Assembly (NCBI GenBank): GCA_002867475.1
Contig: PKTL01000043.1
Span: 16,192-80,191 of the forward strand
Source: Candidatus Woesearchaeota archaeon
GTDB lineage: Archaea; Nanobdellota; Nanobdellia; Woesearchaeales; BM511
Direction of reading: 5' to 3'
DNA: 64,000 nt
The notes below the pieces were generated by a model. It did not search any database. It was not told the DNA's origin and was given only the letters and a program-made list of their open reading frames with translations. How positions within the stretch are numbered: position 1 is the first letter of the stretch; every line of letters begins with the position of its first letter. Made by a program: the position numbers and the translations under genes. Below are positions 1 to 40,170 of this stretch, one piece after another.

Positions 1-3000
1 ATCATCTGCGATATGCATTTGAGGATTATAAAAAGATTTAGAAAACTCATCAATAGATTCTTCACCTATTTGACTTCTAAAAGTATAGTCTTTAGCAATA
101 GCATTTTTTAACTCATCCATAGACATTTTTTTCCCATAATAACTTTCAGCCTTTGCAAACATGTCTAACATGAAAGGTTCATTTACAATTACATGATTAT
201 TAGTCTCTCTTATATAAAGGCCTCTTCTACCATCCTCAAAATTAGATTTCATTACAAATTTAATCTCTCCATAATCTGAAGAAAGACCATATCTAAATTG
301 TGCCCCTCTACTTATAGGATCCTCCTTAAAAGATTTTATAACTCCCGAATCAAAAATTGCATTAATACTAGTTATAGGTGCATTATGAGTCCATTGCAAA
401 TCAACAAATTCTCCCCGTACATCTTGACCTGTAGTAATCTTATCTTGTACCCTTCCATATTCAGGGTTTTCAGAATTACGAACAACCCTTCCAAGATCTT
501 GTGTATCGACTAGTTCTTCTGTTACAGATAATGAAAATGAATCTGTTATTCCTGGTTCAATATTAACAACCACATCAGAAACTGAATCTGAAGTTTCTAA
601 GAAAATTTCAGAAGGAGAAGGAGTATCGTCCAACACCCTGGATCCTGGAAGAATCAAATCTTGGTCAGGAACTGAATGAATAGCAATAGAAAGTGAAGGA
701 TTAGTATCTACCAAATCATCTGCAGCGGTTATCAATCCTTGAGATAAAGAGATTTTCTCTGCTTCTTCTAAAGCTTCAGTAATTTGACTAGAGAGCACAA
801 AATTTTCTTCATCTAAAGATCTAGTAGGTGATACAACCAATGTAGAGGATTCAGCATTTCGTATCAGTATACCCTCATCCATTTCAATTATGGCATCACC
901 ATCAGCTTGAGCAACCAATTGTCTATACCCTGAATCATCTGAAGCTCTTAATACAGGAGATATACTTCCATCAGAATGCCTAAAAACTGCCTCAACGGAA
1001 TCTACTACCAAATCATCTACAGATTCTCTAACCGCTTTTTTAGCACCGCCACCACCTGTTAATACATCTCCAATAACACCTAAACTTGGATGTATAAAAT
1101 CACCACCTATACCTACACCAGCTTCAAAACCAAATCTTGCACCTGAAATGCTTACAACACCATCGGTTGTTATTAATCCTTCAGATGTACTTAATAATTT
1201 CATATCATCTAATTTGCTTAAAACATTTGATGAATAGCTACCTAATTTTTGAAGACCTAATTTTGAAACTGCTGAAGTCGCTTTCGATGCTAATCCAGAA
1301 TACTGCAAACCTTTGATTCCTAACTTTGCAACACCACTGACAAAGATACCACCACCAACCATCTCACCGATAAAATTTGCAGAAGTATCACCAAAATTAT
1401 CAAGTGAAGAATCACTCCAATCAAAAAAATCAGTTCCTACCATGTCATCATATTCAGCTTTTGCAACAGGATCATTCTCCATTACCAAAGCATACATTTG
1501 AGCAGCATCATTATAATAACCTTGTTCTCTAAAATTTCTTGCTTGTGCCAAAAAAAGGTCATTTTGTATCTCTCCACTAAAACCTAGATTGGATTGCACC
1601 AATTCTTCTACTTTCAATTGAGTATTTAATGTAGGGTTTTGATAAAACATTGTACTAAGTTCATTTCGAGTCATATCTCTTTGAGAATCAGAATCATCCT
1701 CGTTTGTTCTTTCAACAGATAATCTATCTGCAAATTCTGGAAATTGATCTGCTAAACTACCTTCACCATTTTCAATAATATTATAAACATCAGTCATTGT
1801 TGATGCTTCACCTTTTTTTATCAAATCTTTGGCAATATCTAATACGACACCTGTAACCTGAGTTTCATAATCTAATCTTTCATTATCTCTTCCAACTGAT
1901 GTTTTATACCACTGCCAAGGGTTTAGCACACTATAACCTGCTTCGATAAGTGTCTGCCAACCTTCTCTAGCATTTTTCCCAGTATATTCCAATTCGCCTG
2001 ACATTGTCTTTTCATAATATTTCATCCAAGGATGTTTATCTCTAGTAGCTTCATCATAAACCCCTAATTGTTCTAATGCCCCTTCTAGAATGGCAAGTTT
2101 TGCTGCTTTATTTTGCTCTAGAAAATTTTGTGCAACTTTATTTTGTTCAGGAGTTCCTTTTCCTAAGACTGATTCATATAATTTAACTGCGCCAACAAAA
2201 TTACCTGAGATAAGCTCTAATGAAGCTAATTTAAAATTAATAGTTGGATTATCTGAAATTTCAGAAAATCTTTCAAGATCCTCTTTTAGAACATTAAAAT
2301 TAAGTTGACCATTTTCAGTATTTCTCATTACTAAAGCTTCAATTATTAAATCTTCATTAGAGATCTTATCACCATAACTTTCTTTTACAATCCTTGGGTC
2401 CATCAATAAAGCTTTATCCTCTCCTTTAACAAAAGCAATAGACCTCATATTTTTACCATCAACCTCTAGATTAACAGAACTGACAATACCTCCTGTATCA
2501 CCTAATTGAATCACAAAATCATCAAAAGAATCAATAAAATGATCCCCAGTGGCTCCAAAAATTTTATTTATTTCATCTAGATTAGAAATGACAACATCAT
2601 CCTCTTTAGATATTAACATAGGAAATTCTAGTATTTCTTTATTTAAACTTAAATCATTTACACTATACCCATCAAATTTTTTAGCAAAAGTTGCAATATC
2701 CCCTTTCTCATCTGCATCAATATATATTTGTTCTACTTCATTGAATGCTCTTATTAAAGTTGAAGAATCTACTAAACCTTCATAAGTATAAGTAGAAGCC
2801 TCAACATCACATTTGCCATAAACCTGATCAAAATTATCACTGTGTAAAACTAATGAACCTATTTCAAACTTGGAGGGATCTAATTTTTTAGTTTTAGAAT
2901 AATCTTCTAAAAATTTAGAATGTTCTATTAAGAATTCTGAAGAATCTTCAATTGATTCCTTAGATTTGGAACTAAACTCTCCTTGTGATGTTGAAAATTG

Positions 3001-4461
3001 ACCAAAGGCCATGAAATCATCACCATATTGAACTAAACCATTAAATTCTCCAAGATTATTTATATCTGTAGACCCATAAGGAGTTATAGCTAAAGGTCTT
3101 CCAATACTATTTGCTTTAAAATTTTTACTTAAATCTACAAAAGTAGAATCATAATCTTTAGTGCTTTTAAGCAAAACCGATCCTTTATCTGTATATATAA
3201 AATCACCTTCTACTGTTTTGGTTGTTACTTTCAATTCTCCAGACTTTAATTTATTCAACAGTTCCGTATTTTGTGCTGAAGTCCCACCGAATTCACCTAA
3301 ACCTAAAGATTCATATGCCTCTTTTCTTGCTTGATAATTATCTTGTCCGGTTCCATATCCTAATTCAGTAAATGTATCAGAAGCACTTGAACCAATAAGA
3401 TTAGAATTAAGTGTTCCTTTTATTGATATCTTTGAATCAATCCCAAAAATTTGAGTATCACTTATTGTTAATGATTGTTCTGATCTAAAATCTATCACTT
3501 CATGATCTGGACCAAAAGTTATTGTTCCTTTTACTATATCTCCAATATCTGTTTCAAAATCAATAGGAGTAAGAATACTTAATGAATTACCATTATCATG
3601 AACTGTTATATCTCCTTGAGATTCATCAATCTCAGCGATTCCATATTTTGAAACCATAACTACTTTTGATCCGGCTGTTAATTGATAATCATCATACTGA
3701 TTATCTGGCAGTTCTAAACCTACACGTAAATCGCCAATTTGTGTTATTCTTGAAAATGTTCCATCTAATTTCACATTTGCATTTGCGATTTCTGCCCCAT
3801 CTTTTAGCCATAATTTTCCACTATCATCAATCCCATCAACAATCCCATCATTAATATTGAATGAACCAGTTATATCTATACCACCCTCTTCTTCAGATAA
3901 TCCTTTTCCTATAGAAATTTCACCAGATTCTTTATCGAAACTGCCTATTTTAGTATTTTCAGAAGCAACGATATAACCTCCTTTTTGACCAAACCAGGTA
4001 GTTACTGCATCAGGATTATTATTCAAAAATGTTGCATCTTTATCAAGCTGTGTATCGACTGAATCTAAAACAGCAGACTCCATCATTAGATCAATATTTG
4101 CATCAACTGCTCTTTTCAAATCTTCAGATTCTAATTTACTTGAATAAGCAGGATTTTTACTAAGTGCTTTTGCTAAGTCAATATCTGTCAATTCTTCTGC
4201 AAGACCTTCACTAGATTCTAACAACATTCCCAAATCTTCAGAAGATATATCCTCAGCATATTTAGCAAGATCAACGCTACTAATCTGAGATAATTGATCT
4301 ACATTTGCATTATCTATAACATGCATAGGATCAGTGGTAAAAACCATCTGCAATTGAGAAGGATCACTCAAGCTACAATCACTGACTACTTCAGGGCATT
4401 CAGCATAGATTAAACTAGTTGAAAGTGTCAGTAATAATATGAGCATGATTACTTTTTTCAT
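1..4461 (-). CDS. Very large secreted protein, partial (C-terminus lies beyond window start); paralog of 6328..8640 product
   Basis: Continuous minus-strand reading frame from ATG (rc of 4459-4461) to the window edge, >1480 codons. The ORF track misses it because there is no stop in the window. N-terminal signal peptide MKKVIMLILLLTLSTSLIYA followed by an ECPxxxxDC motif. ATGA overlap with the upstream gene. Shares N-terminal motifs (DLxKALxS, FLNNNxxAxxxWFxxKGG, SFDKES) with the 770-aa paralog. Confidence 0.7.
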   Translation of the reverse strand, partial: MKKVIMLILLLTLSTSLIYAECPEVVSDCSLSDPSQLQMVFTTDPMHVIDNANVDQLSQISSVDLAKYAEDISSEDLGMLLESSEGLAEELTDIDLAKALSKNPAYSSKLESEDLKRAVDANIDLMMESAVLDSVDTQLDKDATFLNNNPDAVTTWFGQKGGYIVASENTKIGSFDKESGEISIGKGLSEEEGGIDITGSFNINDGIVDGIDDSGKLWLKDGAEIANANVKLDGTFSRITQIGDLRVGLELPDNQYDDYQLTAGSKVVMVSKYGIAEIDESQGDITVHDNGNSLSILTPIDFETDIGDIVKGTITFGPDHEVIDFRSEQSLTISDTQIFGIDSKISIKGTLNSNLIGSSASDTFTELGYGTGQDNYQARKEAYESLGLGEFGGTSAQNTELLNKLKSGELKVTTKTVEGDFIYTDKGSVLLKSTKDYDSTFVDLSKNFKANSIGRPLAITPYGSTDINNLGEFNGLVQYGDDFMAFGQFSTSQGEFSSKSKESIEDSSEFLIEHSKFLEDYSKTKKLDPSKFEIGSLVLHSDNFDQVYGKCDVEASTYTYEGLVDSSTLIRAFNEVEQIYIDADEKGDIATFAKKFDGYSVNDLSLNKEILEFPMLISKEDDVVISNLDEINKIFGATGDHFIDSFDDFVIQLGDTGGIVSSVNLEVDGKNMRSIAFVKGEDKALLMDPRIVKESYGDKISNEDLIIEALVMRNTENGQLNFNVLKEDLERFSEISDNPTINFKLASLELISGNFVGAVKLYESVLGKGTPEQNKVAQNFLEQNKAAKLAILEGALEQLGVYDEATRDKHPWMKYYEKTMSGELEYTGKNAREGWQTLIEAGYSVLNPWQWYKTSVGRDNERLDYETQVTGVVLDIAKDLIKKGEASTMTDVYNIIENGEGSLADQFPEFADRLSVERTNEDDSDSQRDMTRNELSTMFYQNPTLNTQLKVEELVQSNLGFSGEIQNDLFLAQARNFREQGYYNDAAQMYALVMENDPVAKAEYDDMVGTDFFDWSDSSLDNFGDTSANFIGEMVGGGIFVSGVAKLGIKGLQYSGLASKATSAVSKLGLQKLGSYSSNVLSKLDDMKLLSTSEGLITTDGVVSISGARFGFEAGVGIGGDFIHPSLGVIGDVLTGGGGAKKAVRESVDDLVVDSVEAVFRHSDGSISPVLRASDDSGYRQLVAQADGDAIIEMDEGILIRNAESSTLVVSPTRSLDEENFVLSSQITEALEEAEKISLSQGLITAADDLVDTNPSLSIAIHSVPDQDLILPGSRVLDDTPSPSEIFLETSDSVSDVVVNIEPGITDSFSLSVTEELVDTQDLGRVVRNSENPEYGRVQDKITTGQDVRGEFVDLQWTHNAPITSINAIFDSGVIKSFKEDPISRGAQFRYGLSSDYGEIKFVMKSNFEDGRRGLYIRETNNHVIVNEPFMLDMFAKAESYYGKKMSMDELKNAIAKDYTFRSQIGEESIDEFSKSFYNPQMHIADD

Positions 4462-5534
4462 TGTGGGATAAATGTTACCTCTCTGCAATGCTTGTCTCGT
4501 TGGTCATATGCACAAAATTCTATTGTTTTCTCTTCAGAAGTTCTTGCAGTATATGAAACCATTCCTGTAATTGGATTGACAAATACGTTTCTCTCTTCAG
4601 TGTAATAATTTATCATATCACCATCATAATCTGTTGCGTTTAAGTAAAAAGTGAAAGGTTCGTTTATTCCAACTACATGATCTGGAATGAATTCTAGTCT
4701 TGGTGCACTATTCACTTTCTTGTTTATTGCTAGATTGAATATTAAAGGCACTTCATATTCATCATATTCTGAAATTATTGAGATGACATAATCTGTTCCT
4801 GAATAAGGATTTAAGATTATCTTTTCATCAAATGATGTGAGTAGTTCAAAGCTTAATTCTTGTGAAAGGCTTCCATCTCCAAGAAGATCTTCTGCTTGTT
4901 CATCTTCTATACCAAAACCGGATAAGTATTCTTGCGATATTAGTTCATCAACTTTTATGCTTGTTTTTATCTCATCTGCTGCACCAAGTATTTTTAAGAT
5001 GTTTATAGGTACTTTAAAGCTGTATTCTTCAACCAACAAGTTAGAATTGTCCCTTTCTAAGGATATTGGATAATTAAGGTCTACCCTCACATTTTTATAT
5101 TCGAAATTAACTGAAGCTTTTGGCTCACCATAAACTATATCATTAACGGCGAATAGATCCGATCTTTTTACACATAAAGATATCGTATCTTCAACAAACT
5201 TTCCTAATTCAGATTCCATGAATTCTACGTTTGGACTAGTATCTATACCATCATAAATGTGATAAGCTACAGGGTTGTTTATGACTAGAAATATGTCTGA
5301 ATAATCATAGATAAATCCACCTCTATTTGCAAGCAAATAAATTCCTGGAACTGATACATCCTCAATGCACCTTTCCACATATTCCTCCACTATTCCTTTT
5401 GTAAGGATAGTGTTAGATATATCTAGTTGATCAATATCAACATCATCTTTCATAAGGTAGTAGAATGAGATAACTCCTAGTATCAATATACCTATTATTA
5501 TGAATACTGTCACCTGTCCCTTCTTATTCATCAT
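4458..5534 (-). CDS. Class III signal peptide (archaeal type IV pilin-like) protein, 358 aa
   Basis: N-terminus MMNKKGQVTVFIIIGILILGVISF: basic residues, then KG|Q, then a hydrophobic helix, as in archaeal prepilin-peptidase substrates. Its stop TGA overlaps the ATG of the downstream secreted-protein gene (ATGA). Paralog of 8637..9677. Confidence 0.6.
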   Translation of the reverse strand: MMNKKGQVTVFIIIGILILGVISFYYLMKDDVDIDQLDISNTILTKGIVEEYVERCIEDVSVPGIYLLANRGGFIYDYSDIFLVINNPVAYHIYDGIDTSPNVEFMESELGKFVEDTISLCVKRSDLFAVNDIVYGEPKASVNFEYKNVRVDLNYPISLERDNSNLLVEEYSFKVPINILKILGAADEIKTSIKVDELISQEYLSGFGIEDEQAEDLLGDGSLSQELSFELLTSFDEKIILNPYSGTDYVISIISEYDEYEVPLIFNLAINKKVNSAPRLEFIPDHVVGINEPFTFYLNATDYDGDMINYYTEERNVFVNPITGMVSYTARTSEEKTIEFCAYDQRDKHCREVTFIPQ

Positions 5535-5550: not shown

Positions 5551-5576
5551 ATACTATATAAAGTTTAAGAAAAAGA
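5551..5576 (-). promoter_or_regulatory. BRE/TATA promoter for the pilin-like gene (leaderless); 26 nt identical to 9700..9725
   Basis: ATACTATATAAAGTTTAAGAAAAAGA on the + strand; rc gives AAACTTTATATAGT with the TATA box about 22-29 nt upstream of the ATG at 5534. Identical copy upstream of the paralogous gene. Confidence 0.55.
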
Positions 5577-5655
5577 GAGATAATTCATTTATTTATTACT
5601 TATTAGTGACTACAAAAACGAAAGCTTTATATAGTAATAGATATTATGATAAGAT

Positions 5656-6327
5656 ATGGATAGAAGAACTTTTTTAAAAAATCTTGGACTTGCTACTGCA
5701 AGCTTAACCATGCCAAAAACAGCGTTAGCTTCATTAGAAGATACAATAAAATACCTAGATGGAACAAGAGAAAGAAAAATTGGTAACACCTTAAAAGTAC
5801 AAAAAGCATATGAACTTTCAAATGAAAAAGGACTATCCTTACTAGTTGATAAAACAAACTATTCCCTACAAGTATTATCAAAAGGTAAAGTTATCCATGA
5901 ATATCCTATTGAACTTGGTTTTGATCCGAAAAATGATAAAGAAGTTGAAGGAGATGGAAGAACTCCTGAAGGACATTTTTTCATCTGCAAAAAAAATCCT
6001 TATAGTAATTTCCATAAATCACTTGGAATAAGCTATCCAAACCTAGAAGATGTTGAAAGAGGATTACATGAAGGATTAATCACTCAAAAAGAAGCAGATT
6101 CTATTGAATACCAGATAAAAAATGAGATGCAACCTTTATGGAAAACAGCACTTGGTGGTGAAGTTATGATTCACGGAAGTGGCTCAGGAAAAACACCTAA
6201 TCAAGGTGGAAGAAACTGGACATGGGGCTGTATATCGTTAGCTGATAACCATATCGATGAAGTATATGATATATCAAAAGTAGGAACACCTTTAATCATC
6301 GTGAAAAACAATCCTTATCTTAGATAA
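5656..6327 (+). CDS. L,D-transpeptidase (YkuD/ErfK catalytic domain) with Tat-type signal peptide
   Basis: N-terminus MDRRTFLKNLGLATASL matches the (S/T)RRxFLK twin-arginine consensus. C-terminus has MIHGSGSGKTPNQGGRNWTWGCISLADN, a His...Cys catalytic pair with YkuD-like spacing and context. Confidence 0.65.
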   Translation: MDRRTFLKNLGLATASLTMPKTALASLEDTIKYLDGTRERKIGNTLKVQKAYELSNEKGLSLLVDKTNYSLQVLSKGKVIHEYPIELGFDPKNDKEVEGDGRTPEGHFFICKKNPYSNFHKSLGISYPNLEDVERGLHEGLITQKEADSIEYQIKNEMQPLWKTALGGEVMIHGSGSGKTPNQGGRNWTWGCISLADNHIDEVYDISKVGTPLIIVKNNPYLR

Positions 6328-8640
6328 TTACCATTCATCTAATTCAGTGTTTGTTGCAACAGAATTAGTTTCTGCATAAATTCTTTCACTTTCAACAAAA
6401 TTTAATTCTACCCCCTTAATTTTTTCTGCTGAATAATATTTCCAAACACCACTCTCATCCTTATAATAATAAGCCATCCTTTGACCTTCATTCTTACCAT
6501 TTTCCATATTATATCTCCATCCTGTAGAATCTTGAGATTTTCCTAGCCAAGAATTTTTTTTAGATTCTTTAATGACTAAATCACCCATAGCTTTATAACC
6601 TTCTCGTTGAAGAACATCAACATTAACTATTTTTCCAACAACAGGATCCCTACCTGGAGCTACAGTTTCCCAACCAGCAATTAATCTAACATTAGGATAG
6701 GCCTTTTCCATAGTAGAAACAAATTTTTCAGCAGTTTGAAATTCAGGATTTGCATTATCTGTATATCTAAATTCACCATAATGAGAAGTTTGAGAATTAT
6801 CATAATATTGAGAATAGACCAAAGAATCACCATTTGCTACTTTTTCTCTTAAATATTCAGGATCCATAACTGTATGACAAGCACTAAAAGTTACAACTTC
6901 AATATTGGGATTTCTAGGCAAAGATTCAAAAGAGATAGTTTCTGCAAATTGATTAAATATACCATTTTGTCCGGTATAATGATGTCCTGAAAAAGACAAA
7001 ATTGTAGCATCAGTAGTTGCTAATTTTTGAAATAGTTCAGGATCACCATTTTGTACTGAATCATAATACATTGAAGAAGGAATAATTCGCTGAATAGTTT
7101 CCCCAACATTTGTAAATTCTGGATTTCCAGTTAATTGAAAAACACCATTTACTTCTGAAGGTTTTGAAGGATAATTTCCACAATTACCTTTTTCTTGACA
7201 AGAAGAACAAATAAAAAATTCTCCATCAATAAGGTTTATTGTATGCGCACCTTCTAAAGAAGTCTCAACCTGATCAAAATTAAAATCATAACGTATATCA
7301 GGAGTAATTTCAGTCATTATTCCTTCAATAATAATAGGATTATTAGGATCTGCAGAAAAAATCAAATGAGAGTTATCTGTATTTAAATTAATTATACTTT
7401 CATCGGTTATTTCATCAATATCAATATCTACTAAATTATCTAAATTGACAATCTCCATATTATTATCTACGCTTTTAACAAAAATTGTTCCTTTTTCTTT
7501 AGTATGGGAAATACATGAAACTTGAGAATTTTCACAATAATTAACAGAAGAATAATCATCTAGATTTTCATAATAACATAATCCATTTTCACAAATTTGA
7601 GCTGGTTCCAATATAGGCTGTGAATCTACATAATAATATGTCTCCTCTTCCGCATTAAAAAAAAATGATTTTTCACCATCAAAATAGGGCATAAATTTAG
7701 TATTTTCACCAATTATAAAATCCTCATCATCATAGATAACCTTTCCTGAAAATTCGAAAGAAACTTCATTATTAGATTTATCAAAAACTATAAGATTTTC
7801 TCCTTCAAAAGTTTTTTTATTACCCTCAAGATCAACATTGAGAAATCCACCTTCCATCGTACTATATCTTTTATCTATATCTTGAATCTCCCCATTAATT
7901 ATATTTACATTAGTATTTTGAGAATTTGAAATATCTGTGACGCCACCAACGACTACCACATCACCATTTTCATTTATACCGATATTGCCTGAAGAAATTT
8001 CTGTACCTGTAATCAATATTAATCTTCCTTCACTTGTAATTTGAGCCCCCGGATGATCATTTATATTAAAAGTGGTAGATTCAGAACCTCCTGTTTTAAC
8101 AATGTTTGACTCCTTATCAAAACTTGAAATAGAAGCACCATTTTGAGGAATTATACCTCCTTTTGTTTCAAACCAAGAGGCTAACGCTTCATGATTATTA
8201 TTTAAAATAAAAGTATTTCCATTACTAACTTCATCATCAATCTTACTCAACACCACAGGATTACCAATTAAACCAGCCGCATCTGATTCAAGCGCTTTAG
8301 ATAAATCATCAGAATCCAACTTATTAACAGAGTCAGGCTTTGCTAAAATACACGCACTTAATTTTTCTGGAGTCATACCATTATACTTTGCAAGCTCCGG
8401 CCTTTGTAATAATACTTCGCCTATCTCATCAGGAAAATCACTTGCAAAATCACTAAGCGTAGAACTATCCAAACCCATTAAATCATTAACACTCACCCTT
8501 TCATCACTAGGACTCAAATCACCTGACTGTAAACCAATCAACCGATCACTTTGACTTGAATAATCACAATCAGGAGGACAATCAGCAAAAACAAAATTAC
8601 ATAATAATAAAATCATAATAAATAAAACTATTTTTTTCAT
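6328..8640 (-). CDS. Large secreted protein, 770 aa, paralog of the partial gene at 1..4461
   Basis: Signal peptide MKKIVLFIMILLLCNFVFA followed by DCPPDC. Shared motifs with the paralog. ATGA overlap with the upstream pilin-like gene. C-terminal region carries a candidate Cys/His pair (FSGHHYTG ... VVTFSACHT). Confidence 0.7.
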   Translation of the reverse strand: MKKIVLFIMILLLCNFVFADCPPDCDYSSQSDRLIGLQSGDLSPSDERVSVNDLMGLDSSTLSDFASDFPDEIGEVLLQRPELAKYNGMTPEKLSACILAKPDSVNKLDSDDLSKALESDAAGLIGNPVVLSKIDDEVSNGNTFILNNNHEALASWFETKGGIIPQNGASISSFDKESNIVKTGGSESTTFNINDHPGAQITSEGRLILITGTEISSGNIGINENGDVVVVGGVTDISNSQNTNVNIINGEIQDIDKRYSTMEGGFLNVDLEGNKKTFEGENLIVFDKSNNEVSFEFSGKVIYDDEDFIIGENTKFMPYFDGEKSFFFNAEEETYYYVDSQPILEPAQICENGLCYYENLDDYSSVNYCENSQVSCISHTKEKGTIFVKSVDNNMEIVNLDNLVDIDIDEITDESIINLNTDNSHLIFSADPNNPIIIEGIMTEITPDIRYDFNFDQVETSLEGAHTINLIDGEFFICSSCQEKGNCGNYPSKPSEVNGVFQLTGNPEFTNVGETIQRIIPSSMYYDSVQNGDPELFQKLATTDATILSFSGHHYTGQNGIFNQFAETISFESLPRNPNIEVVTFSACHTVMDPEYLREKVANGDSLVYSQYYDNSQTSHYGEFRYTDNANPEFQTAEKFVSTMEKAYPNVRLIAGWETVAPGRDPVVGKIVNVDVLQREGYKAMGDLVIKESKKNSWLGKSQDSTGWRYNMENGKNEGQRMAYYYKDESGVWKYYSAEKIKGVELNFVESERIYAETNSVATNTELDEW

Positions 8641-9677
8641 ATTGCATCACCAGATTTATTAAAAGTTATAAAACTTATATCTTCTCTACCTAAATCATCT
8701 CTAATTTTAATTATATATGAACTAATTCCATAGTCTAAAATCGAAGTATTAAAATAGATGATACCTTGATTTTCATCAATATTAAATTTTTCAGAATTAT
8801 CATAGAATTTTAGATTGTTACCAGAAGCAGTAACTTTAAAATCAAATATTAGATTATTTTCAATATTAAAAATATCTGTATCAACAATTAGAGGATGATT
8901 CTCTTCAATTAATTGATTCCAATACATATAATCCCATTGATAATAAGTAGCATAATTATACCTAAAATCATCTTGATTAGGAATTGTAAAATTAAATGAA
9001 AATAATACTTCAGAAAAACCTTTATGAATAATATTGAAAGTATAATTATATTTCATAGAATTGATAAGGATATTACCAAAAATTATTTCATTAGGATATT
9101 TTTCCTGTTCATCTATTATATTGGAGATTATATCATATTTTTCTTTGAAACTATTATCAACTACTGCATCATACTTTGTTCGTTTTATTATAGTGTCATC
9201 TTTGATTAATTCCAGATATAGTTCTAGGTCTGCTTCTATATTTTTTTGATTTATGTTTGCATCGACATCTTTTAGTTCATATTGCAAGATTGAGACCTTA
9301 TCCTTAAAGGAGTTATAATCATCTATGCAATTTTCTAGATTATAATACACATATTTATTCAATTCACCTTCAATTATTTCTATTGAAGGGATCTTTTTTT
9401 CACCATCCCAATAATATGCAACTTTCATATTTTCAAAATCTATATAATCTAATTGAAGGTCATAATAACCCCCTCTTAATGCTAGATATCTTATCCCCTC
9501 ATCTATTGTTTTTGAAAGACATAATTTTGTAAACTGATCAATCTCTTCAAAAACTTCAACTTGTCCTGTTTCTTCAAAAGAATCAGATTCTTTTTTTGTT
9601 AGAATCAGAAAAGAAACCGCTATAACTATCAATATACCTATTATTATGAATATTGTTACTTGACCTTTTCTTCCCAC
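8637..9677 (-). CDS. Class III signal peptide (type IV pilin-like) protein, 346 aa
   Basis: N-terminus MGRKGQVTIFIIIGILIVIAVSF (KG|Q plus hydrophobic helix); paralog of 4458..5534. Confidence 0.6.
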   Translation of the reverse strand: MGRKGQVTIFIIIGILIVIAVSFLILTKKESDSFEETGQVEVFEEIDQFTKLCLSKTIDEGIRYLALRGGYYDLQLDYIDFENMKVAYYWDGEKKIPSIEIIEGELNKYVYYNLENCIDDYNSFKDKVSILQYELKDVDANINQKNIEADLELYLELIKDDTIIKRTKYDAVVDNSFKEKYDIISNIIDEQEKYPNEIIFGNILINSMKYNYTFNIIHKGFSEVLFSFNFTIPNQDDFRYNYATYYQWDYMYWNQLIEENHPLIVDTDIFNIENNLIFDFKVTASGNNLKFYDNSEKFNIDENQGIIYFNTSILDYGISSYIIKIRDDLGREDISFITFNKSGDAI

Positions 9678-9725: not shown

Positions 9726-10025
9726 TTAATGAAATAACTTCTCATATTTTTCAAGTTGTCTCTTTGATAATTTATATATTATGTCATGATGCTCATAATC
9801 TACGAAATGAATAGTTCCATCATCTCCAAAGAAGAGTATAACATAAGAATTGTTAACATGTGCTCGTTTAAATCTTTTTAATTTATATTTCAAATTTTTG
9901 TAATGATTAATATCTTCAGAACATATTATTTCATCAATTTTATTCATAAGATTTTTTAATTCTTGGCCTCTAAGCTTACTAACTTTCTTTTCAAAATCTG
10001 GAGAAGTTTTAGCTTTTCTTTTCAT
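9726..10025 (-). CDS. RelE/ParE-family toxin
   Basis: C-terminal KRFKRAHVNNSYVILFFGDDGTIHFVDYEHHDIIYK resembles the RelE/ParE core (Rxxxx YRiiY ... hRkdiY). One-nt overlap with the upstream antitoxin gene. Confidence 0.55.
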   Translation of the reverse strand: MKRKAKTSPDFEKKVSKLRGQELKNLMNKIDEIICSEDINHYKNLKYKLKRFKRAHVNNSYVILFFGDDGTIHFVDYEHHDIIYKLSKRQLEKYEKLFH

Positions 10026-10324
10026 TATTTGAGATCGGCTTTTTTTCTCATTTTATCAAGAAATTTTTTTGAATCTTCAACGCTACTAAAAGTGTTTACT
10101 TCTTTGCTATTAAGCAAAAAATTAGCATATTCTTCTCTAACTTCTAAATCATCAAATATTTTATCTCTTAAAGCCTCTCGAATAAGTTCTTGGATACTCA
10201 TATAACCTTTTTCTTCTGCATATTTTTTTGCAAGACCAAAAAAATTATCTTGAAATTTAAGATTTACTTGCGTAACCATAGTATCTTGAGATATCTTAAG
10301 ATATTTAAAACTTGTGTTTACCAT
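10025..10324 (-). CDS. Ribbon-helix-helix (CopG-like) antitoxin
   Basis: VNLKFQDNFFGLAKKYAEEKGYMSIQELIREALRDKIF: beta-strand followed by two helices, as in RHH antitoxins. Located immediately upstream of the RelE-like gene. Confidence 0.5.
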   Translation of the reverse strand: MVNTSFKYLKISQDTMVTQVNLKFQDNFFGLAKKYAEEKGYMSIQELIREALRDKIFDDLEVREEYANFLLNSKEVNTFSSVEDSKKFLDKMRKKADLK

Positions 10325-10366
10325 ACTCTAAAATAAAAATATTTAATTTAAAAATCTCACGTGAAA

Positions 10367-10376
10367 ATGTCCAGTG
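10367..10376. promoter_or_regulatory. Copy of the recurring intergenic motif ATGTCCAGTG (context GTGAAAATGTCCAGTGAAAAAA)
   Basis: Seen directly in the sequence. Related copies at 28077, 40144, 40161, 56411 and 56461; all are intergenic. Confidence 0.5.
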
Positions 10377-27165: not shown

Positions 27166-28034
27166 TTATTTTAGAATTTTCTTCTTTTTCATATCAAGAT
27201 TATTATTTTTAGACATTACTGTTCTTCCTATTCTTTTTTCTATACTTTTTCTTGTTTCATTTGCTACTTCTCCACCTTCTTTAGCAGATTCGTTACATTC
27301 ATCAAAACCTTGAGAATCATTTTCTATTGTTATATCAGTTGTAGCTTTTTCACCAACCATAGTTAGTATCAATTCCCAATCATTCACACATGAAGACTAT
27401 AAGTCTTCAGTGCACAGAAGAATACTAATTCTTCTTGTGTGTGATCTCTTAAGTTCTGCTTTTTTAATTTTTTAAAATCCTTATATTCTCCAACAGTTTT
27501 ACCAAATGTTGCTTTACTAATTTCATTTGTCAATATTGCGAATTCATTTTCGTTTTTTACATCTCTATTTTTCCATTCGTCGGTTAATTCTTGTCTTATT
27601 ACAATACCTCTTAATCTTTTATCTATCCACTCTTTTGGATATCCTTTTAATTCATAATATTCTTTGATTCTATCTTGACCCAATTCAGGATTTTCTATCT
27701 CTTGTATTCTTTCATAACCTGTTTTAGCTAACCATTGTTTGAAAGGTTCAGCTTTTTTTGAAGGAATCGATTGAATTATACGAAAAAGATTCTTTGTATT
27801 TGCACAATCAGTAAAATAAGATTTTCCATCTGAAGAAGATAATTTCAGTTGTACCCAAATTGGGGACAACTCAAGCACTTTAAATTCTCTATCTTTAACT
27901 TTTCCCCAATATTGTCTTGGCTTGGGACTTTCAGTTAAAACTTCAACAACATCAACTATTGAGAAATACCATTCATCATTGAACCAAATCCTTCTAATGT
28001 TCTTATCTTGGAAAACTATTATTTTATCATTCAT
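27166..28034 (-). pseudogene. DinD-like Bro-N (KilA-N superfamily) gene split into 216-aa and 73-aa pieces
   Basis: N-terminal Bro-N domain (IRRIWFNDEWYFSIVDVVEVL); C-terminal ILTNEISKATFG ... NLRDH, then a stop. The remainder (ELILTMVGEKATTD ... GGEVANETRK ... VMSKNN) continues in another frame with a 4-nt overlap. Hairpin gaagactATAagtcttc at the junction. Confidence 0.5.
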
Positions 28035-28076
28035 AGATTATTATAAACTCTTTTTATTTAAATACTCTATGTGGCT

Positions 28077-28086
28077 ATGTCCAGTG
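28077..28086. promoter_or_regulatory. Copy of the ATGTCCAGTG motif in the divergent intergenic region
   Basis: Seen directly in the sequence. Confidence 0.45.
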
Positions 28087-29371: not shown

Positions 29372-29668
29372 ATGACTGGTCAAGGAGATGATATTAGAGA
29401 TAAATTCAATTCTTTAGTTAGTAATCTCCAAAAATTAGGGTTTTCTTTTGATGAAATACTTTCCATGATGAGTTCTGATTTTGAATCTGATAAAACCCTT
29501 ATTCCCTTAGAAGTATTTCGAACCCGAGACCTTGGAGCGCTTGAAAGCTTAACTGTTTTTCTAAAAGAGAAAAAGGACATGAAATTCTCTGAAATAGGCA
29601 AAGCCTTGGAAAGAGATCAAAGAACTATCTGGACAACATACAATAAAGCAAAGAAGAAACTAGAATGA
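29372..29668 (+). CDS. Sigma-70 region 4-like / LuxR-type HTH DNA-binding protein
   Basis: IPLEVFRTRDLGALESLTVFLKEKKDMKFSEIGKALERDQRTIWTTYNKAKKKLE matches the sigma70_r4 pattern; ATGA overlap with the giant gene. Confidence 0.55.
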   Translation: MTGQGDDIRDKFNSLVSNLQKLGFSFDEILSMMSSDFESDKTLIPLEVFRTRDLGALESLTVFLKEKKDMKFSEIGKALERDQRTIWTTYNKAKKKLE

Positions 29669-32600
29669 GAACCAATAAAACCATAATCAAAATATTGATG
29701 ATTCTTCTAGTTAGTGTTATCTTTTCTCAAATAGGTTTGAGTTTTAATTTCAATTGCACTTCAGATAGTGTTCTAACAGAATTTAGTGGATCTGACACTG
29801 TGAATTGGATTATTGAAAATGATACTATATGTGAAAATGTATACATTGAACTTTCAAGAAATATTACAATAAGTACAAATGGAAGATTAGAATTTAGAAA
29901 TGTAACACTTGACATGAATGTTTTAGGAAATGATGGAAATATAGGAATAGAAGTTGAACCAAATAGCAATGGAATATTCATTTATGATTCAAGAATTCAA
30001 AGTATGACAGCTAATAATTATTTCTGGATTGTGAATCAAAGTTTTATAATGGATAGAACTAATGTAAGTAATTGTGGATATGCAATACCTAGCAATAACC
30101 CTGGAATAAATTTATTTTATGGAAATTCAAAAATTAATAATTCTAAAATAAATGAAGGTTTCATCAATTTATATATTAATTCAGAAAATAATACTATTGA
30201 GAATACACAAATATCAGATTCGAATTATTATCCAATCTTCTTTGCAACATCCAATAATAAAATAATAAATTCAAACATTACTAATGGAACAAGAGGTATT
30301 TATTTTGATTCTAATGTAAATAACATTACTATTAATAAAATAATTATAAAAGATATTTCTAGTTCCGCATATTATCTTGAATTCACTAATAATGACCAAA
30401 TATTAATTAATAATTCTATAATTAATATTACAAGTATAAATCATGGAATTTATGACTCGGCAAATACTTTAAAATTAACAATTATAAATTCGAAAATTGA
30501 TAATAATTTTGATAAAAAAAGTATCACAATAGATAACGAATTTTCAAATATTAAAATATATAATTCTACTATTGATAAAAATAAAATTACCATAACAGGA
30601 ACTCAAGCCAATATCACATTCAAGGAATATGTTAATTTTCATGTTAATGGATCTGATGGAGCTGATTATTTGAATGATGTTGTTGTGAAGTTATATGATA
30701 ATAGCACTAATTCATACGGACCAACAGCAAATTATACATTAACAACTGGAACACCCTATGATCCAGGTTACACTGCGATGCTTACAGTTATAGATATGAT
30801 AATGTATAATGGATATAACACCTCATACAGCCCATACAATGTTACATTCAACAAAACAGGTTATAAGTTCTATTGGAACAATAGTTATTTCTTCAACAAA
30901 TCAGAAACGCATTACGTAACCCTTGACCCAATAACACCTCTAACATGTGAGGGATTATTTTCTGATAATGGAAATGTTATAATCACTGAAGACTTAACTT
31001 GTGAAAACTTAACAATAATAGCACAAAACGTTACAGTCAACAACAGTGCAAGGTTGATATTGAAAAACACCACGCTAATAATAAATGAAACAGCCATAGG
31101 ACATCCATCAATAATCAATATAACAAATGAAGCAGCAGGTATTGAATTACAAAACAGTACGATAAAAGGTCTTAATGATAATGATTATGATTTTATATCT
31201 TATTCAAATACATTAATAAATCATAGTTTAATAAAAGATGTTGGCAGTTCAACAACTATAAATGGATTACATATATACACAAATAATGCGATTATCATAA
31301 ATTCTAGATTTGAAAATAATTATGAAGACCTAGTATTAAAAGGAGATAACTTTACATTAGAAAATCTTGAACTCATAAACTCATACAATAACGGAATAAG
31401 AATTGGAGCTGATTCATTTAATCCTTTAACAAATAGTAAATTCAAAAATATAAGTATAAATAGTTCAGGAAAAGGAATAATAATACAGGATAATTCAAAT
31501 AATCATTATTTTGAAAAATTATTTATAACAAATGATGAAATTGACACAGGAGAGGTATTAATATCCTTAAACAAAGCATATAATTTAACTTTTAATGATT
31601 CAATTTTTAACATATCACAATCTACTGGAAGCAGTGCATTTTCTATTGATTTTAATTCTGCTAATTTTACATTAATAAATTCAAAAATCTATAATCTTGG
31701 AGAAAGTGCAACCGAAATAAAACTCATTGGAAATTCATTTATTAATATAATAAACTCTTCTTTTGATAGATCAAAGATAGAATATGTTTCTTTCACAGGG
31801 AATATCTCTTTCTATGAATATATTAAATTTAAGATATATAATGACAGTGTCTATACAGAGGCGTTATTTGATGTTAACCTAACCTTGAAAGACAACATAT
31901 CCAAAAATGAAAAATATAATCTTACAACTGATGAAAGTGGTTACACAAACACCATTTTAGTTCTTGATGGAGTTGGAAACAGCTCATATGATGGAGTGCA
32001 TTATAATTATGCATACAGCCCTTATAATATAACCTTTGAAAAGGAAGGTTACATTACTAAAAACTTAACTTTCTACCTTAATGAATCAACAACTTTTGAA
32101 GCTAACATATCAATGATAGCTGAACCATCTTCAGATTACATTTTAGTGGAACTGATCAATCCTATAACTATAAGTGAGAACAAGACACCTACAGTTACGT
32201 TCAAGGTTAATGGGAGCATGACAGGATACTTTAATTGCTCATTAAGAACAAATATCACAGGTCATGATTATGAATATAATGAAAGTGTGGTAAATAATAC
32301 TCCTACAAGCCTAACCTTTGCTACTGACTTACCTACAGGATCCCATAAGTATTGGGTTAACTGCTCAAATAATGAGATAAATAATGTTTCAAATAACATA
32401 ACATTATTGATTGTTGAAGAGAACCCTTCAATAAACTTGTTAAGCCCAAAAAATAATAACGTAACAACAAATACTAGCCAAATATTCACTTTTAATTTCA
32501 CAGATACTTATTCAAGTACGGCAAACTGTTCGCTTATAATAAACGGATCCATATACAGGTATAACAGCACTGTTTTGAACAACACACCAACAGATATAAA

Positions 32601-35600
32601 CCAGGAATTAAGTATTGGAAACTATAACTGGACTATTAACTGTACAGACATATATGGTAATATTGGAAGCGATGATGGAAGAAACCTGACAATAGAAGCG
32701 TTAGATCAAACAGGACCAACACCGATAACCTATTCACCAACAACTGGCACAAGTAGAGAATATGATAAATACAGGCAAGATTATTTCAATGTTACATGGA
32801 CAGATATTAGTGGAATAGAAAATGTAAGAATCTATAATAATTTTTCAAATGGAATATGGAATAATTATGAAGTTTCTAACATCAGCAACTCATATTATTA
32901 TAATACCACTAATATCAAACCAGGAAGATATGCTTGGTATATGAATGCAAGTGATACAGAAGGAAACTCGAACTGGACAGGATACATAGATTATATAATA
33001 ACAAAAAGCACAAACGATCAATTGATATTAACAATAAATGGAACAGAATCAAGCACCCCATTTTTGCAAAGAAAAACTTCTCTTTGGATAAATGGTTCAA
33101 GCAATAACCAAGACATAGGATTGACACTTTTTGTAGATTATGAAAATTTGAGCTATGGAATAAATGTCAGCAACTTTTATTTTTTCAATGAATCAGGATT
33201 GAAGATTGTTAATTTAACAATGGATGCAAATGATAGATTTGAAATAACGAATAAAGTTCTTACAGTCCAAGTTAATGACACTATCCCTCCAGCAAAGATA
33301 AATAATCTTCAAGCAACCCACATAACTTATGATATGATAAACTGGACATGGACACTTCCATCAGGAGAGGATGATATCAATAAGGCTGAAGTTTGGATAG
33401 ATGGAGAGCTAGTTGAAAACATAACGAACCCTTATGGACAAACCTATTTCGATTACTCAACCACTCAAAACACACTTGTTAATATTAGTGTTAGACTAGT
33501 GGATGATTATAATAATACTGGCGAAGAATTTAATACGTCTAATAGGACATTAAGGATAAATTATGCTCCAACAACATACTTAGAAAAACCAGATAACAAC
33601 ACCCAGATAAATAATAGTTTGAGTGTTACTTTCAATTTCACAGCATATGATGAGCTTCCCATCTATTTAAATTGCTCATTAAAAGTTATGGATAATATAG
33701 ATAGTAATATAACAATCTTTAACTTATCAGCCTATAGCGGAACACCTAGAATCTATACAAATAGTTCAATATTTTCATATAATCATTCATACTCTTGGTC
33801 TGTGAACTGTACAGATGGTGAATATTATAATATCTCAGACACATATTATTTCAACATAGCAGACACTTTACCTCCTGCAAAGATAAATAATCTTACTAAC
33901 TTAACTGGAGACAGTTGGATATATATCACTTGGTACAATCCTTCTACTGATTTCAATCACACAGAAGTTTGGTTTAATGATTCATATTATGACACTTTTA
34001 ATGACACATATCAAACCTTAAACATTACAGGATTGGATGACAATACAATTTATAATTTTAACATCACAGCGTATGACATATATAATAATGGTAACACAAC
34101 ATTGTTTAATATAACTACTGAAGTTGGGGATTATTCTGCCCCCTATATCAACTATCCTCAAATGCCTGAAAGTGGAACAATAACAAATAATGAAAGCGTG
34201 ATTTTCAATATCACTGCAAGTGATGATTCAGGAGGAACAATATCCTGTAATCTTACAATATATAATTCATCATCAACCATGATTGAATCCCAAACATTGA
34301 ACATATTAAGCGGCACATATGGATCAACAACTGTAAATCTTCCTGATGGAGAATATCATTGGAATTTTACCTGTGTTGATTATGATAGCAATCAAGCAAA
34401 TAGCACAACCTACCTATTGACTGTTGATACAACTCCACCATTTTATAGCGACCTATGGAATAATACTGATGGAGGATCAACATTTAATGAATCATATGAT
34501 TATCTTTTCAAGATCAGATGGAATGATACGATTACAGAAATTACAAATGTTTGGTTCGAAAACAACTTAACAAATAATCCTCTAGTAAATAGCACACCTT
34601 CACAAAATGGAAACTTATACACATATTCACCATCTACACCTCTTAAGCCAGGAACATATGCATATAAATGGTATGCAAGAGACAATGCAAATAATTTCAA
34701 TAATACAGAACTATTCACATTCACAATCAATAAAGCTGAACCAGCCTTAATGCTAAAATTAGATGGATCAGAACAGAACATCACTTATCTTGAAAGAAAG
34801 GATAACGTGACAGTTTATGCAATGATCACTAAGCCTAGCACAGAAACAATAACTGTGACATTACAGAACAGCTCAGGAACTTTTAGCATAGATCAATATA
34901 CAACCTTGCAATTTAATGAAGTAGGAATCTCAAACATCACTGCATCTTTTGAAGGAAACGAAAATTACACATCAAAAAACATAACGTATTATGTGAATGT
35001 TTCTGATAATGTAGGGCCTGAAGATGTGGTTATAGATCAAACAGTTATTACTACTTCTTATTTTTTCATACAATGGAATGATTCAACATCTGATGATTTC
35101 AATCATACAGAAGTATTGATAGATAATATTAATTATGACCATGGAGCTGATACTTTTATTAACCTTAATACTCCATCAGAGACAGAATATGAAGTGCTTA
35201 TAAGACATTTTGATATATATGGAAATAATGGTTCATGGACAAATATCACAATAACTACATTATCAAACATTCCAAGTATAGAATTATTATATCCAACAGA
35301 TTATTTGCTCATAAGCAACATGAAATCTGTTAATCTAACATTCAATGTCACAGATGAATCAGATTATGTTAATTGCACAGCTTATATTTATGGAAGAACT
35401 AATACATCCTTCTCAAAAACATATAACAATCTCTACACACAGGTTGGAACCCCTTATACTTTCAATACAGGAGAAATATTAGAATATAACAATACCTATA
35501 ATTGGTCAGTAAATTGTAGCGATCCTTACAATTACAGTGTTTCAAACACCCAAGCTTTTGGTATTATAGATACAAATCCTCCAATAATATCAAACATCAA

Positions 35601-39204: not shown

Positions 39205-40101
39205 ATCTAATTTATTTAACATATTGAAAGTTTCTTTATCAAATCTAGAAAAAGCAAACCACTTCTTTCCAAGATCTTTAAGTGATGCTCCAAAATGAAA
39301 CACTTCTTTTTCATCTATGATTAAAAACCTATCATGTGAATCTTTAAATTCCTTAATTTCTATATTTGGATTTTGAGAATTATATTTTTTTAGGTCAAGA
39401 ATTAATTTCTTTGTTAAATTTTTTGTTAAAATAGTTGCTTTAACATTTTTATCTCTTTTACTTAAAATAGTTAAAACAGAATCATCAATGTAATTATCTA
39501 TTAATATTATTGATTTATTAGCACTTCTAATAATATCAGATACTAATTTATATGCATCAAAAATTTCTCCATCATAAAATATTCATTTATTTAAATTAAT
39601 ATTATTATTTTCTAATTTACTAAATATTTCCTTAAAATTTTTATCATGAATCAATTGCTTTGATTCAATATGATCTAATCTATTATTAATATTAAAATTA
39701 TTTGATATGATTTTTCTTAATTCTACAAAAGTATCTATTATTTGAAGACTTACAGTTATTGCAACTTTACTTCTTAAAACAGAAGAAAGCATAGCAACAC
39801 CTTGTTCTGTAAAAACATAAGGAAGAGAACCACCCAACTGCTGGTTAGAAGGTATCGCAAAATGCGATACCTTTTCTTTTGTGATCACAGATTGTGACCT
39901 TAAATTTTCAATTTCTTCTAAAGTTAATTGAAACATAAATCTTGAAGGAAACCTTTCAATATTTCTTTTTACTTGTTCTCTAATACGGATGGGTTTTACT
40001 TGATATAATTCTGCTAAATCCTTATCAAACATTACTTGTTTTCCCCTTATTTTATAAATTTTATTTTTTATATTATTCTCTAATATGATTTCATTAATCA
40101 T
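39199..40101 (-). pseudogene. ORF6N-domain (KilA-N superfamily) gene interrupted by an in-frame TGA at 39583-39585
   Basis: N-terminal part KIRGKQVMFDKDLAELYQVKPIRIREQVKRNIERFPSRFMFQLT ... GGSLPYVFTEQGVAMLSSVLRS is an ORF6N domain. After the TGA the same frame stays open for 127 codons with no start codon (IFYDGEIFDAYKL ... HDRFLIIDEKEVFHFGASLKDLGKKWFAFS), resembling the usual C-terminal region of this family. Confidence 0.55.
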
Positions 40102-40143
40102 ATGATTTTACAAGAAACCTTGTTTAAAAGCCTCACTTGAGAA

Positions 40144-40170
40144 TGTCCACTGATATTTTTTGTCCAGTGG
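40144..40170. promoter_or_regulatory. Two copies of the TGTCCA(C/G)TG motif forming an 8-bp inverted repeat (GTCCACTG ... CAGTGGAC)
   Basis: GAATGTCCACTGATATTTTTTGTCCAGTGGAC; a further partial copy TCCAGTG at 40202-40208. Confidence 0.5.

Follow-up and report, generated by a model that had tools for sequence, protein, structure and literature searches.

A YkuD-fold enzyme gene of bacterial descent, with a predicted twin-arginine signal, in a Woesearchaeota genome

What would an archaeon presumed to be without murein do with an export-tagged enzyme of the YkuD fold? The question is raised by a gene on a 64,000-nucleotide (nt) stretch of Candidatus Woesearchaeota archaeon DNA (GenBank assembly GCA_002867475.1, contig PKTL01000043.1, positions 16,192 to 80,191 of the forward strand), which is referred to here as the window and to which all positions refer unless another contig is named. 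The gene encodes a YkuD-fold protein with a predicted twin-arginine translocation (Tat) signal, and the identical protein is deposited at NCBI as PLW80282.1 (locus tag C0585_03115, 'Candidatus Woesearchaeota archaeon'). The reading favoured here, with moderate confidence, is that this is an acquired and now native DPANN gene, the product of which would be a Tat-exported YkuD-fold hydrolase acting on the stem peptides of bacterial peptidoglycan. The gene and its parts are the following, where AF2 stands for AlphaFold2 and pLDDT for its predicted local distance difference test score.

5620 to 5633, plus strand: archaeal-type promoter read from the sequence, a purine-rich GAAAGC resembling a transcription factor B recognition element (BRE), then a TATA box TTTATATA (5626 to 5633)
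5656 to 6327, plus strand, stop codon included: YkuD-fold gene with a Tat signal, ATG start, 223 amino acids (aa)
5656 to 5730, plus strand: predicted twin-arginine signal peptide, residues 1–25, from the motif and the AxA rule applied by eye
5731 to 5838, plus strand: linker, residues 26–61, modelled by AF2 at low confidence (pLDDT 50–70) as one long helix, 22–58
5839 to 6300, plus strand: YkuD catalytic domain, residues 62–215, from Pfam, AF2 and Foldseek
6043 to 6150, plus strand: insertion of ∼36 residues (130–165) with helices at 130–138 and 144–155, between the SYPN motif and IHG, from alignments and AF2
6172 to 6174, plus strand: codon of catalytic His173 (IHG; IHGSG is residues 172–176), invariant in 65 sequences
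6178 to 6216, plus strand: subclade-specific His-Cys loop SGSGKTPNQGGRN, residues 175–187, from the alignment, with low pLDDT at 179–182
6229 to 6231, plus strand: codon of catalytic Cys192 (W-T-W-G-C-I-S; WGCISL is residues 190–195), an invariant Cys

Native status, domain layout and signal peptide

The genome had been taken for archaeal from the letters of the window only, and this is borne out by the genes found there, which include those for Nop5, aRF1, aIF5A, RtcB, archease, CDC48, GatD/GatE, CDP-archaeol synthase and OapB, together with the NCBI assignment to Candidatus Woesearchaeota. The order of genes around the YkuD gene (giant protein, 358-aa protein, YkuD, 770-aa protein, 346-aa protein) is identical in three independent assemblies, JGI 3300007102, Logan SRR5894287 and ENA ERZ794998, the longest of which runs on past the 346-aa gene to OapB, Nop5 and aRF1. 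The guanine-plus-cytosine (GC) content of the YkuD gene, at 0.329, is 0.4 standard deviations off the mean of 0.314 for the 51 genes of the window, and its codon usage is typical, ranking 36th of 51 by distance from the gene pool; the GC content of bacterial homologues ranges from 0.37 to 0.77, with a median of 0.56. The TTTATATA box begins exactly 30 nt before the YkuD ATG, and of 50 genes in the window, 17 have a box of the TTTAWATA type that begins 27–34 nt ahead of the start codon. The box at −30 is therefore read as a probable promoter, and its distance from the ATG would imply a leaderless mRNA.

An artefact, whether bacterial contamination, a chimeric assembly or a functionless, decaying relic, might be suspected from the metagenome-assembled source of the DNA and from the observation that, above 54% identity, the YkuD protein stands alone among 15 billion proteins. 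Contamination, chimerism and a recent, unexpressed insertion are nevertheless rejected, because three assemblies agree, composition and codon usage are host-like and the promoter is archaeal. Archaeal marker genes also lie on the same contig, the open reading frame (ORF) is intact with its conserved residues kept, and a related gene occurs in the same layout on a second archaeal contig, which encodes L19e, L32e and SecY. An artefactual origin is thus effectively refuted, and the YkuD gene is native to the archaeal genome.

The YkuD domain and His/Cys active site of the original prediction were both recovered. The Pfam YkuD family (PF03734) is matched far above its cut-off at residues 62–215 (E = 1.8e-17; score 64.7 bits, gathering threshold 23.4), over positions 4–146 of the 146 in the profile, and His173 and Cys192 align with the active-site residues of solved enzymes, in the IHG...GC segment of DpaA, Pgp2 and Bd1075 and inside the matched segment (121–163) of B. 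subtilis YkuD. The AF2 model has a mean pLDDT of 84, exceeding 90 over most of the catalytic domain and weak at the signal, the linker and loop 179–182. Searching with this model in Foldseek gave 78 PDB matches at E ≤ 1e-3, and all of the top 50 listed have the YkuD fold. The insertion at residues 130–165, which is missing from E. coli DpaA and from Rhodobacteraceae members, may cap the active site. In comparison with 64 homologues, the protein retains every one of the 19 invariant columns and, of 41 columns with ≥90% conservation, 36, which points to purifying selection and a retained function.

The N-terminus of the product reads MDRRTFLKNLGLATASLTMPKTALA, after which comes the predicted cut and then SLED. 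Within it are DRRTFLK at residues 2–8 (RRTFLK codons 5662–5679), the hydrophobic h-region NLGLATASLTMP and, in the c-region, Lys21, with cleavage predicted after Ala25 (A23-L24-A25, then S26). It thus has what is looked for in a Tat substrate, namely an n-region of the form [S/T/D/N]-R-R-x-F-L-K, a moderately hydrophobic h-region and an AxA site (K-T-A-L-A, cut before S). Across the 64-kb window, read in six frames, the pattern RRxFL[KRQ] occurs once only, and that is at the N-terminus of the YkuD protein, so that the twin-arginine motif is not due to chance.

The bacterial family and a signature subclade

Relatives of the YkuD protein number at least 595 in GTDB, searched with one genome per species, and the best 80 of these are all bacterial, with Armatimonadota, Acidobacteriota, Bacillota, Desulfobacterota, Planctomycetota and Rhodobacteraceae among them. 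A profile of the first matches found 5829 clusters at E ≤ 1e-5 in a set of 5.8 billion proteins; source names among the 120 clusters listed are all bacterial, save the query's own. The exhaustive profile search returned 10074 representatives at E ≤ 1e-3, with 1547 passing the stricter limit of 1e-30. In trees of the domain, all of them neighbour-joining (NJ), the window protein is nested in this bacterial family. Since the wider family is essentially all bacterial, horizontal acquisition from bacteria, one of the explanations first offered for the gene, is well supported, and the nesting is accompanied by linkage to archaeal core genes and by freedom from assembly artefacts.

Bacterial members mostly carry lipoprotein- or Sec-type signals or membrane anchors, many have SH3_3 wall-binding domains, and many family members are called 'YafK' in JGI source annotations. 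No conserved operon was found in the gene neighbourhoods of 80 bacterial homologues, where the 104 neighbours include 12 second YkuD genes, eight CAP genes, two PBP4-type S13 peptidases and one Ddl. Members of the wider family with 35–38% identity to the window protein are also encoded on six contigs of the IMG/VR viral collection (L088–L093).

The window protein at first formed an isolated long branch, and a lone, single-lineage orphan transfer was considered; this was dropped once P0231, and then P0266, emerged. The former, found in the exhaustive search, is the closest full-length relative, 44% identical to the window protein over its full length, and searching again with this pair brought in P0266 and a high-GC group comprising P0303, P0315, P0370 and P0371. 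The resulting seven-member subclade is marked by the loop HGxG[ST]G[KR]xxNxxGxNWTxGC, in which Asn replaces an Asp that is invariant elsewhere in the family; in the window protein this is Asn187, in place of the Asp seen in 64 of 64 aligned homologues. Subclade trees were computed by NJ on ∼154 columns, in which the seven members form a clade with 77% bootstrap support and P0266 groups with the high-GC set at 99%. As P0266 groups with that set, the gene has probably crossed the boundary between the domains more than once within the subclade.

The three low-GC members share 34–53% identity, and RRxFLK is kept in all of them, as NRRDFLK in P0231 and NRRHFLK in P0266 (34–44% identity for these two), one of which is encoded on a clearly archaeal contig. 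The RRTFLK motif singled out in the original prediction is therefore real. The high-GC relatives carry lipoprotein-type signals. That the motif is kept while the remainder of the N-terminus has diverged, and that the bacterial-looking relatives use another type of signal, suggests that the Tat motif is functional in the low-GC hosts.

The clearly archaeal contig is that of P0266 (L095; 32 kb, 27.8% GC), which encodes L19e, L32e, S5, S8, L6, L30, SecY and prefoldin. The true start of P0266 is evidently the internal MMNRRHFLK, which has TTTATATA 32 nt upstream, and the 5' flank of the gene, GATAAGATGATG, is recognisably homologous to that of the window gene. The P0231 gene (positions 833–1552; GC 0.29–0.36) lies on a 1.7-kb Logan SRR10424207 contig (L094), also with TTTATATA, at −30. 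Hairpins forming a perfect inverted pair of 27 nt (603–629 and 1661–1687, the whole spanning 603–1687) enclose the gene on this contig, a second palindrome, GGTTCAATC...GATTGAACC, is present in three copies, at 666, 756 and 1537, and the gene adjoins a 48%-GC gene of the FkpA type (FKBP_N + FKBP_C). The locus looks like a small mobile cassette or, possibly, a chimeric contig. An origin as an integron cassette was considered, integrons having been described in archaea (PMC9668308); the flanking palindromes of this contig show no obvious fit, by eye, to attC core sites.

In the high-GC group (∼60% GC) the YkuD gene lies between sucCD and ackA, other genes of these contigs being those for UvrD, IS21 and AbiGi, and the group looks bacterial. 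Its YkuD gene is always preceded by a gene for a small His-rich lipoprotein (L098:7560-7928; L099:8075-8425) that starts MTRKEFLK..., contains the motifs HTHT, GGHTHTF and HFHNF and is absent at the archaeal loci. The lipoprotein is a possible metal-binding partner or inhibitor.

Hydrolase or transpeptidase chemistry, and a proposed mechanism

The product was initially called an L,D-transpeptidase (LDT), and of this name the superfamily holds whereas the activity is probably wrong, as the family profile, the curated hidden Markov model (HMM) and the fold all fall on the hydrolase branch and Ser stands at Cys+2. A single-sequence search of the window protein against the PDB gave no match. With the family profile, the best PDB sequence was E. 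coli DpaA (8ikr; 8e-11), then Bd1075, Pgp2 and Csd6, with B. subtilis YkuD and the classical Ldts ranking below these four. With the same four proteins the alignment takes in the N-terminal half of the domain (GD..TPEG...SYPN), whereas for B. subtilis YkuD and the Ldts the stretch reported as matched goes no further than the C-terminal His-Cys segment (∼40 residues). In Foldseek the lead is taken by Bd1075, Pgp2 and Csd6, with B. subtilis YkuD and the mycobacterial Ldts next, and the gap to YkuD and LdtMt1 is small. The NCBIfam model for DpaA/YafK (NF040599) is matched by each of the 65 family members scanned and gives each its best E-value; for the window protein it is the sole NCBIfam model matched (22.9 bits against an equivalog cut-off of 365, residues 19–138). 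All 65 score far below that cut-off, and the window protein does not pass as a DpaA equivalog.

The active site points the same way. The strict LDT motif, H-x(16-19)-[S/T]-H-G-C-h-R, is absent from the window protein, which has H173-x18-C192 and T-W-G-C-I-S, with Trp for His and Ser194 for Arg at Cys+2, where the consensus of the family is Ala. LDTs with transpeptidase activity have a conserved Arg at Cys+2 that is absent from DpaA-like proteins and LD-carboxypeptidases (PMC8263019). The window protein resembles Csd6, Pgp2 and Bd1075 in having a YkuD domain without this Arg and in structure, where they are the closest (Foldseek ranks 1–4, 6 and 8); only eight residues follow its YkuD domain, and no C-terminal NTF2-like domain is present. 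The window protein fits best in a hydrolase-side subfamily of the YkuD fold, one without a characterised member, and hydrolase rather than transpeptidase chemistry is probable.

Comparison with individual enzymes shows what this subfamily shares with known systems. E. coli DpaA (LdtF/YafK) is an amidase that frees Braun's lipoprotein (Lpp) from meso-diaminopimelate (mDAP) and has no transpeptidase activity in vitro, and its substrate, Lpp-mDAP, is confined to some proteobacteria (PMC8263019). Common to DpaA and the window protein are the YkuD fold, the Cys/His pair, the N-terminal half (K..R.L.L, GD..PEG, (F/Y)PN) and the lack of Arg at Cys+2, but the window protein has a 36-residue insertion, 18 residues from His to Cys against eight in DpaA, a Tat signal, and a host presumably without Lpp or murein. 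The L,D-carboxypeptidases Csd6 of H. pylori (4xzz), Pgp2 of C. jejuni (6xj6/6xj7) and Bd1075 of Bdellovibrio (7o21) take the first three places in Foldseek (E 5e-8 to 2e-7; TM-score ∼0.46–0.48, normalised to the full 223 aa; 21–22% identity), and they are alike in matching the profile over both halves of the domain and in the GC[IV][AV] context without Arg. These three enzymes carry an extra NTF2-like domain and shape the producer's own wall, whereas the window protein stops just past its YkuD domain.

A precedent for a YkuD-fold enzyme turned on the peptidoglycan of other cells is Tlde1a, an antibacterial effector of the Salmonella type VI secretion system (T6SS) with an altered LD-transpeptidase fold, LD-carboxypeptidase and exchange activity, an inserted capping subdomain and Csd6 as its closest structural homologue (PMC9638812). 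It differs from the window protein in being delivered by the T6SS without a signal peptide and in having a cognate immunity protein, and it is absent from the top 50 Foldseek matches. The canonical LDTs (B. subtilis YkuD, 1y7m; E. faecium Ldtfm; M. tuberculosis LdtMt1/2; E. coli YcbB) have the same fold and the same His-x(n)-Cys segment, but the motif S/T-H-G-C-x-R is not kept in the window protein, which reads T-W-G-C-I-S.

It is unlikely that the protein is, after all, a genuine L,D-transpeptidase, making 3-3 cross-links or exchanging or attaching D-amino acids or proteins on bacterial peptidoglycan. Such an enzyme might serve to stiffen or modify the wall of a host, as Bdellovibrio does with the wall of its prey. 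The name of the Pfam family and the intact His/Cys pair agree with this, 21 of the 65 family members also weakly match LDT models, and the 18 residues between His173 and Cys192 come near the canonical HXX14-17[S/T]HGCh motif (PMC9638812). The helical insertion might moreover cap the site in the manner of the transpeptidase-linked subdomains of YcbB and Tlde1a, the latter of which combines carboxypeptidase and exchange activities (PMC9638812). Against this stand the replacement of [S/T]HGC-x-R, nearest relatives that by sequence, curated HMM and fold are hydrolases, and the in vitro behaviour of DpaA, the best-matching solved protein (PMC8263019). The Pfam label 'L,D-transpeptidase' thus over-calls the activity of the DpaA/Csd6-like branch.

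If the product is a hydrolase, as is preferred here, the precursor would fold before export through the Tat pathway, the signal would probably be cut after Ala25, and the mature enzyme would be released at or beyond the surface of the archaeon. His173 would activate Cys192 for attack on the carbonyl of the L-centre of the position-3 diamino acid in a bacterial stem peptide, and the thioester formed would be resolved by water and not by a second stem peptide. The outcome would be the trimming of tetrapeptides to tripeptides (an L,D-carboxypeptidase, like Csd6, Pgp2 and Bd1075) and/or the freeing of tethered proteins (an amidase, like DpaA). As the archaeon is presumed to be without murein, the substrate would have to be a bacterial wall, that of a neighbour or a host. 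The pseudomurein of methanogen partners was also considered as a target and rejected, with nothing in its favour; its peptide is all-L, and so without an L,D bond.

Several points weigh against this reading. No TatA or TatC was found among the window ORFs of ≥100 aa, in the fetched flanks (up to ∼9 kb per side) or in 20.7 kb of L095, nor was a small TatA-like ORF found in the window. The protein has no wall-binding module, in contrast to the SH3_3 of many bacterial relatives, and the change to Asn187 could alter or weaken activity. The Foldseek E-values of hydrolases and transpeptidases are less than 10-fold apart, and LdtMt2 of M. tuberculosis, a true transpeptidase, has Asn at Cys+2; the Arg rule thus has exceptions, and hydrolase over transpeptidase chemistry is for this reason probable and not certain. 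Finally, an L,D-carboxypeptidase is not by itself lytic.

Neighbouring cassettes and the likely substrate

Two pairs of minus-strand genes bracket the YkuD gene, each consisting of a gene for a ∼350-aa protein of the form M(N/G)(K/R)KGQVT(V/I)FIIIGIL, then one for a large protein with a signal peptide.

1 to 4461, minus strand: N-terminal 1487 codons of a secreted 3014-aa giant, second gene of cassette A, running off the start of the window
4458 to 5534, minus strand: 358-aa protein (MNKKGQVTVFIIIGILILG), first gene of cassette A, divergent from the YkuD gene
6328 to 8640, minus strand: 770-aa protein with a Sec-type signal peptide, convergent with the YkuD gene, the two stop codons abutting with no spacer
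8637 to 9677, minus strand: 346-aa protein starting MGRKGQVTIFIIIGILIV, first gene of cassette B, with a class III signal by reading of [KR]G followed by Q

That these are duplicated cassettes, as was first proposed, is confirmed by the small proteins, which are paralogues (358-aa and 346-aa proteins, 30% identity over 165 aa, E 2e-11), and by an N-terminal domain of ∼220 aa common to the 770-aa and 3014-aa proteins (31% identity, E 2e-17). The 358-aa gene has a TTTATATA box of its own at 5555–5562 on the minus strand. The KGQ motif would be a class III (type IV pilin-like) signal. The cassette proteins have signal peptides, and gave no Pfam match even at E ≤ 0.1 and no meaningful PDB match, so that the label 'adhesin-like' first given to them found no support in these searches; the AF2 model of the 358-aa protein, from a two-sequence alignment, had a pLDDT of 44.5, too low for a fold search.

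The layout is the same on the second archaeal contig, L095, where the YkuD gene converges stop-to-stop on a gene for a large Sec-signal protein that is preceded by one for a KGQVTIFIIIG protein. The small cassette proteins are homologous between the two archaeal contigs, with 29% identity over 199 aa, the 346-aa protein corresponding to a 245-aa protein in the same position on L095, and no similarity was detectable between the large cassette proteins of the window and of L095. The KGQVT-FIIIG proteins, two in the 64-kb window and one in 20.7 kb of L095, are all within cassettes adjacent to a YkuD gene. This conserved linkage to a pair of pilin-like and large secreted proteins suggests that the YkuD enzyme works with a cell-surface contact apparatus. 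Separately, residues ∼545–595 of the 770-aa protein (FSGHHYTG ... VTFSACHTV) hold a His...Cys pair in strand-like contexts that by eye recalls caspase- or clostripain-like peptidases, and for which there was no Pfam or PDB match.

The same linkage could be taken to mean that the enzyme is aimed at the archaeon's own envelope, where it would process, cross-link or release the neighbouring pilin-like or giant surface proteins at a peptide bond resembling the ancestral substrate. This is quite unlikely, although the convergent linkage to the cassette is kept on two archaeal contigs, the subclade loop with its change of Asp to Asn near the active site may mean an altered specificity, and YkuD enzymes both attach and detach proteins (LdtA-C, DpaA; PMC8263019). 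The chemistry requires an L,D bond at a diamino acid, the bacterial-looking high-GC members of the subclade lie between sucCD and ackA without the cassette, and the synteny may reflect shared ancestry only. Moreover, we know of no YkuD enzyme that acts on a substrate other than peptidoglycan.

Little weight is given to a further alternative, in which the same hydrolase chemistry would serve scavenging, with detrital muropeptides or wall debris yielding D-Ala or peptides and no living partner involved. DPANN genomes are metabolically reduced and dependent on salvage (PMC9723730, PMC10936187, PMC8204110), the lack of a wall-binding module would fit soluble substrates, and 21 family members weakly resemble the recycling carboxypeptidase ElsL. 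However, one D-Ala per stem is a small yield, neither an uptake system for peptides or muropeptides nor a downstream catabolic gene adjoins the YkuD gene, and the linkage is to surface or contact proteins.

Other features of the window were also recorded. A second giant, a secreted protein of 3179 aa (29665–39204, plus strand), has a MopE-type metal-binding motif and a weak fn3 match as its only recognised features and bears no sequence relationship to the 770-aa and 3014-aa proteins; it is flanked by Bro-N (27384–28034, minus strand) and ORF6N (39583–40101, minus strand) genes, both characteristic of phages and mobile elements. A lytic-transglycosylase (SLT) domain was sought in both the 3014-aa and the 3179-aa giants, and none was found. 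Two overlapping 99-aa ORFs adjoin cassette B (9726–10025 and 10025–10324, both minus strand), and the pair resembles a toxin-antitoxin module, the second looking like a ribbon-helix-helix or antitoxin-type protein. The motif TGGACATNNNCA occurs five times in the window against 0.42 expected (0 of 100 shuffles reach five), with minus-strand copies at 10362–10373, 28072–28083, 40138–40149 and 56406–56417, and four copies stand just upstream of TTTAAA-type TATA boxes. The genes downstream of it are the 99-aa ORF at 10025–10324, the Bro-N and ORF6N genes and a small ORF near 56360, and it may be a common operator for DNA-binding genes of the mobile-element kind. Further bacterial-type genes on the contig encode a MetK S-adenosylmethionine synthetase with three Pfam domains (62649–63818, minus strand) and a class II fructose-bisphosphate aldolase (57732–58646, plus strand).

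Enzymes against bacterial walls are a known theme in archaea. Small-genome Woesearchaeota and Pacearchaeota encode extracellular lytic transglycosylases (GH23) of up to ∼3000 aa, from which bacterial hosts or prey have been suggested (PMC8204110, PMC9723730, PMC10936187), and archaea secrete peptidoglycan hydrolases that kill bacteria; where these have a signal peptide, Tat is the route for 35% (PMC12352652). The archaeal GH23 giants and Woldo/Danwoldo of Halogranum are, like the window protein, bacterial-type wall enzymes in organisms without murein, extracellular and often tagged for Tat or Sec, but the archaeal wall enzymes already reported are glycosidases, or zoocin-, amidase- or glucosaminidase-type hydrolases with wall-binding modules, unlike the window protein. 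No report of a YkuD-type enzyme was found in the literature on DPANN or archaeal antibacterial arsenals, and there is no mention of one in the main text of PMC12352652 or PMC9723730. The accession of the source sample led to no publication. As no earlier report in DPANN was found, the theme is extended by a new enzyme class; it is one more bacterial cell-wall enzyme in DPANN and not a new kind of system.

The giant lytic-transglycosylase proteins have so far been the main genomic hint that some Woesearchaeota and Pacearchaeota associate with bacteria and not with archaea. The chemistry of YkuD enzymes differs from that of transglycosylases, and every known relative targets the position-3 L,D bond of the murein stem. 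To our knowledge, archaeal envelopes do not contain such a bond, and the exported YkuD enzyme can for this reason be taken as a second, independent hint of bacterial association. A wider and more doubtful proposal, put forward tentatively, is that a small DPANN lineage of Tat-exported stem-peptide editors exists, linked to the cassette since before the two archaeal carriers diverged and forming part of a contact apparatus by which some Woesearchaeota would attach to and breach bacterial, probably diderm, hosts, possibly by DpaA-like cutting of the tethers between outer membrane and peptidoglycan. If true, this would be direct evidence, at the level of genes, that DPANN archaea have bacterial hosts, and, since the bacterial-looking high-GC group nests inside the subclade, it would also point to repeated exchange of the enzyme between archaea and bacteria.

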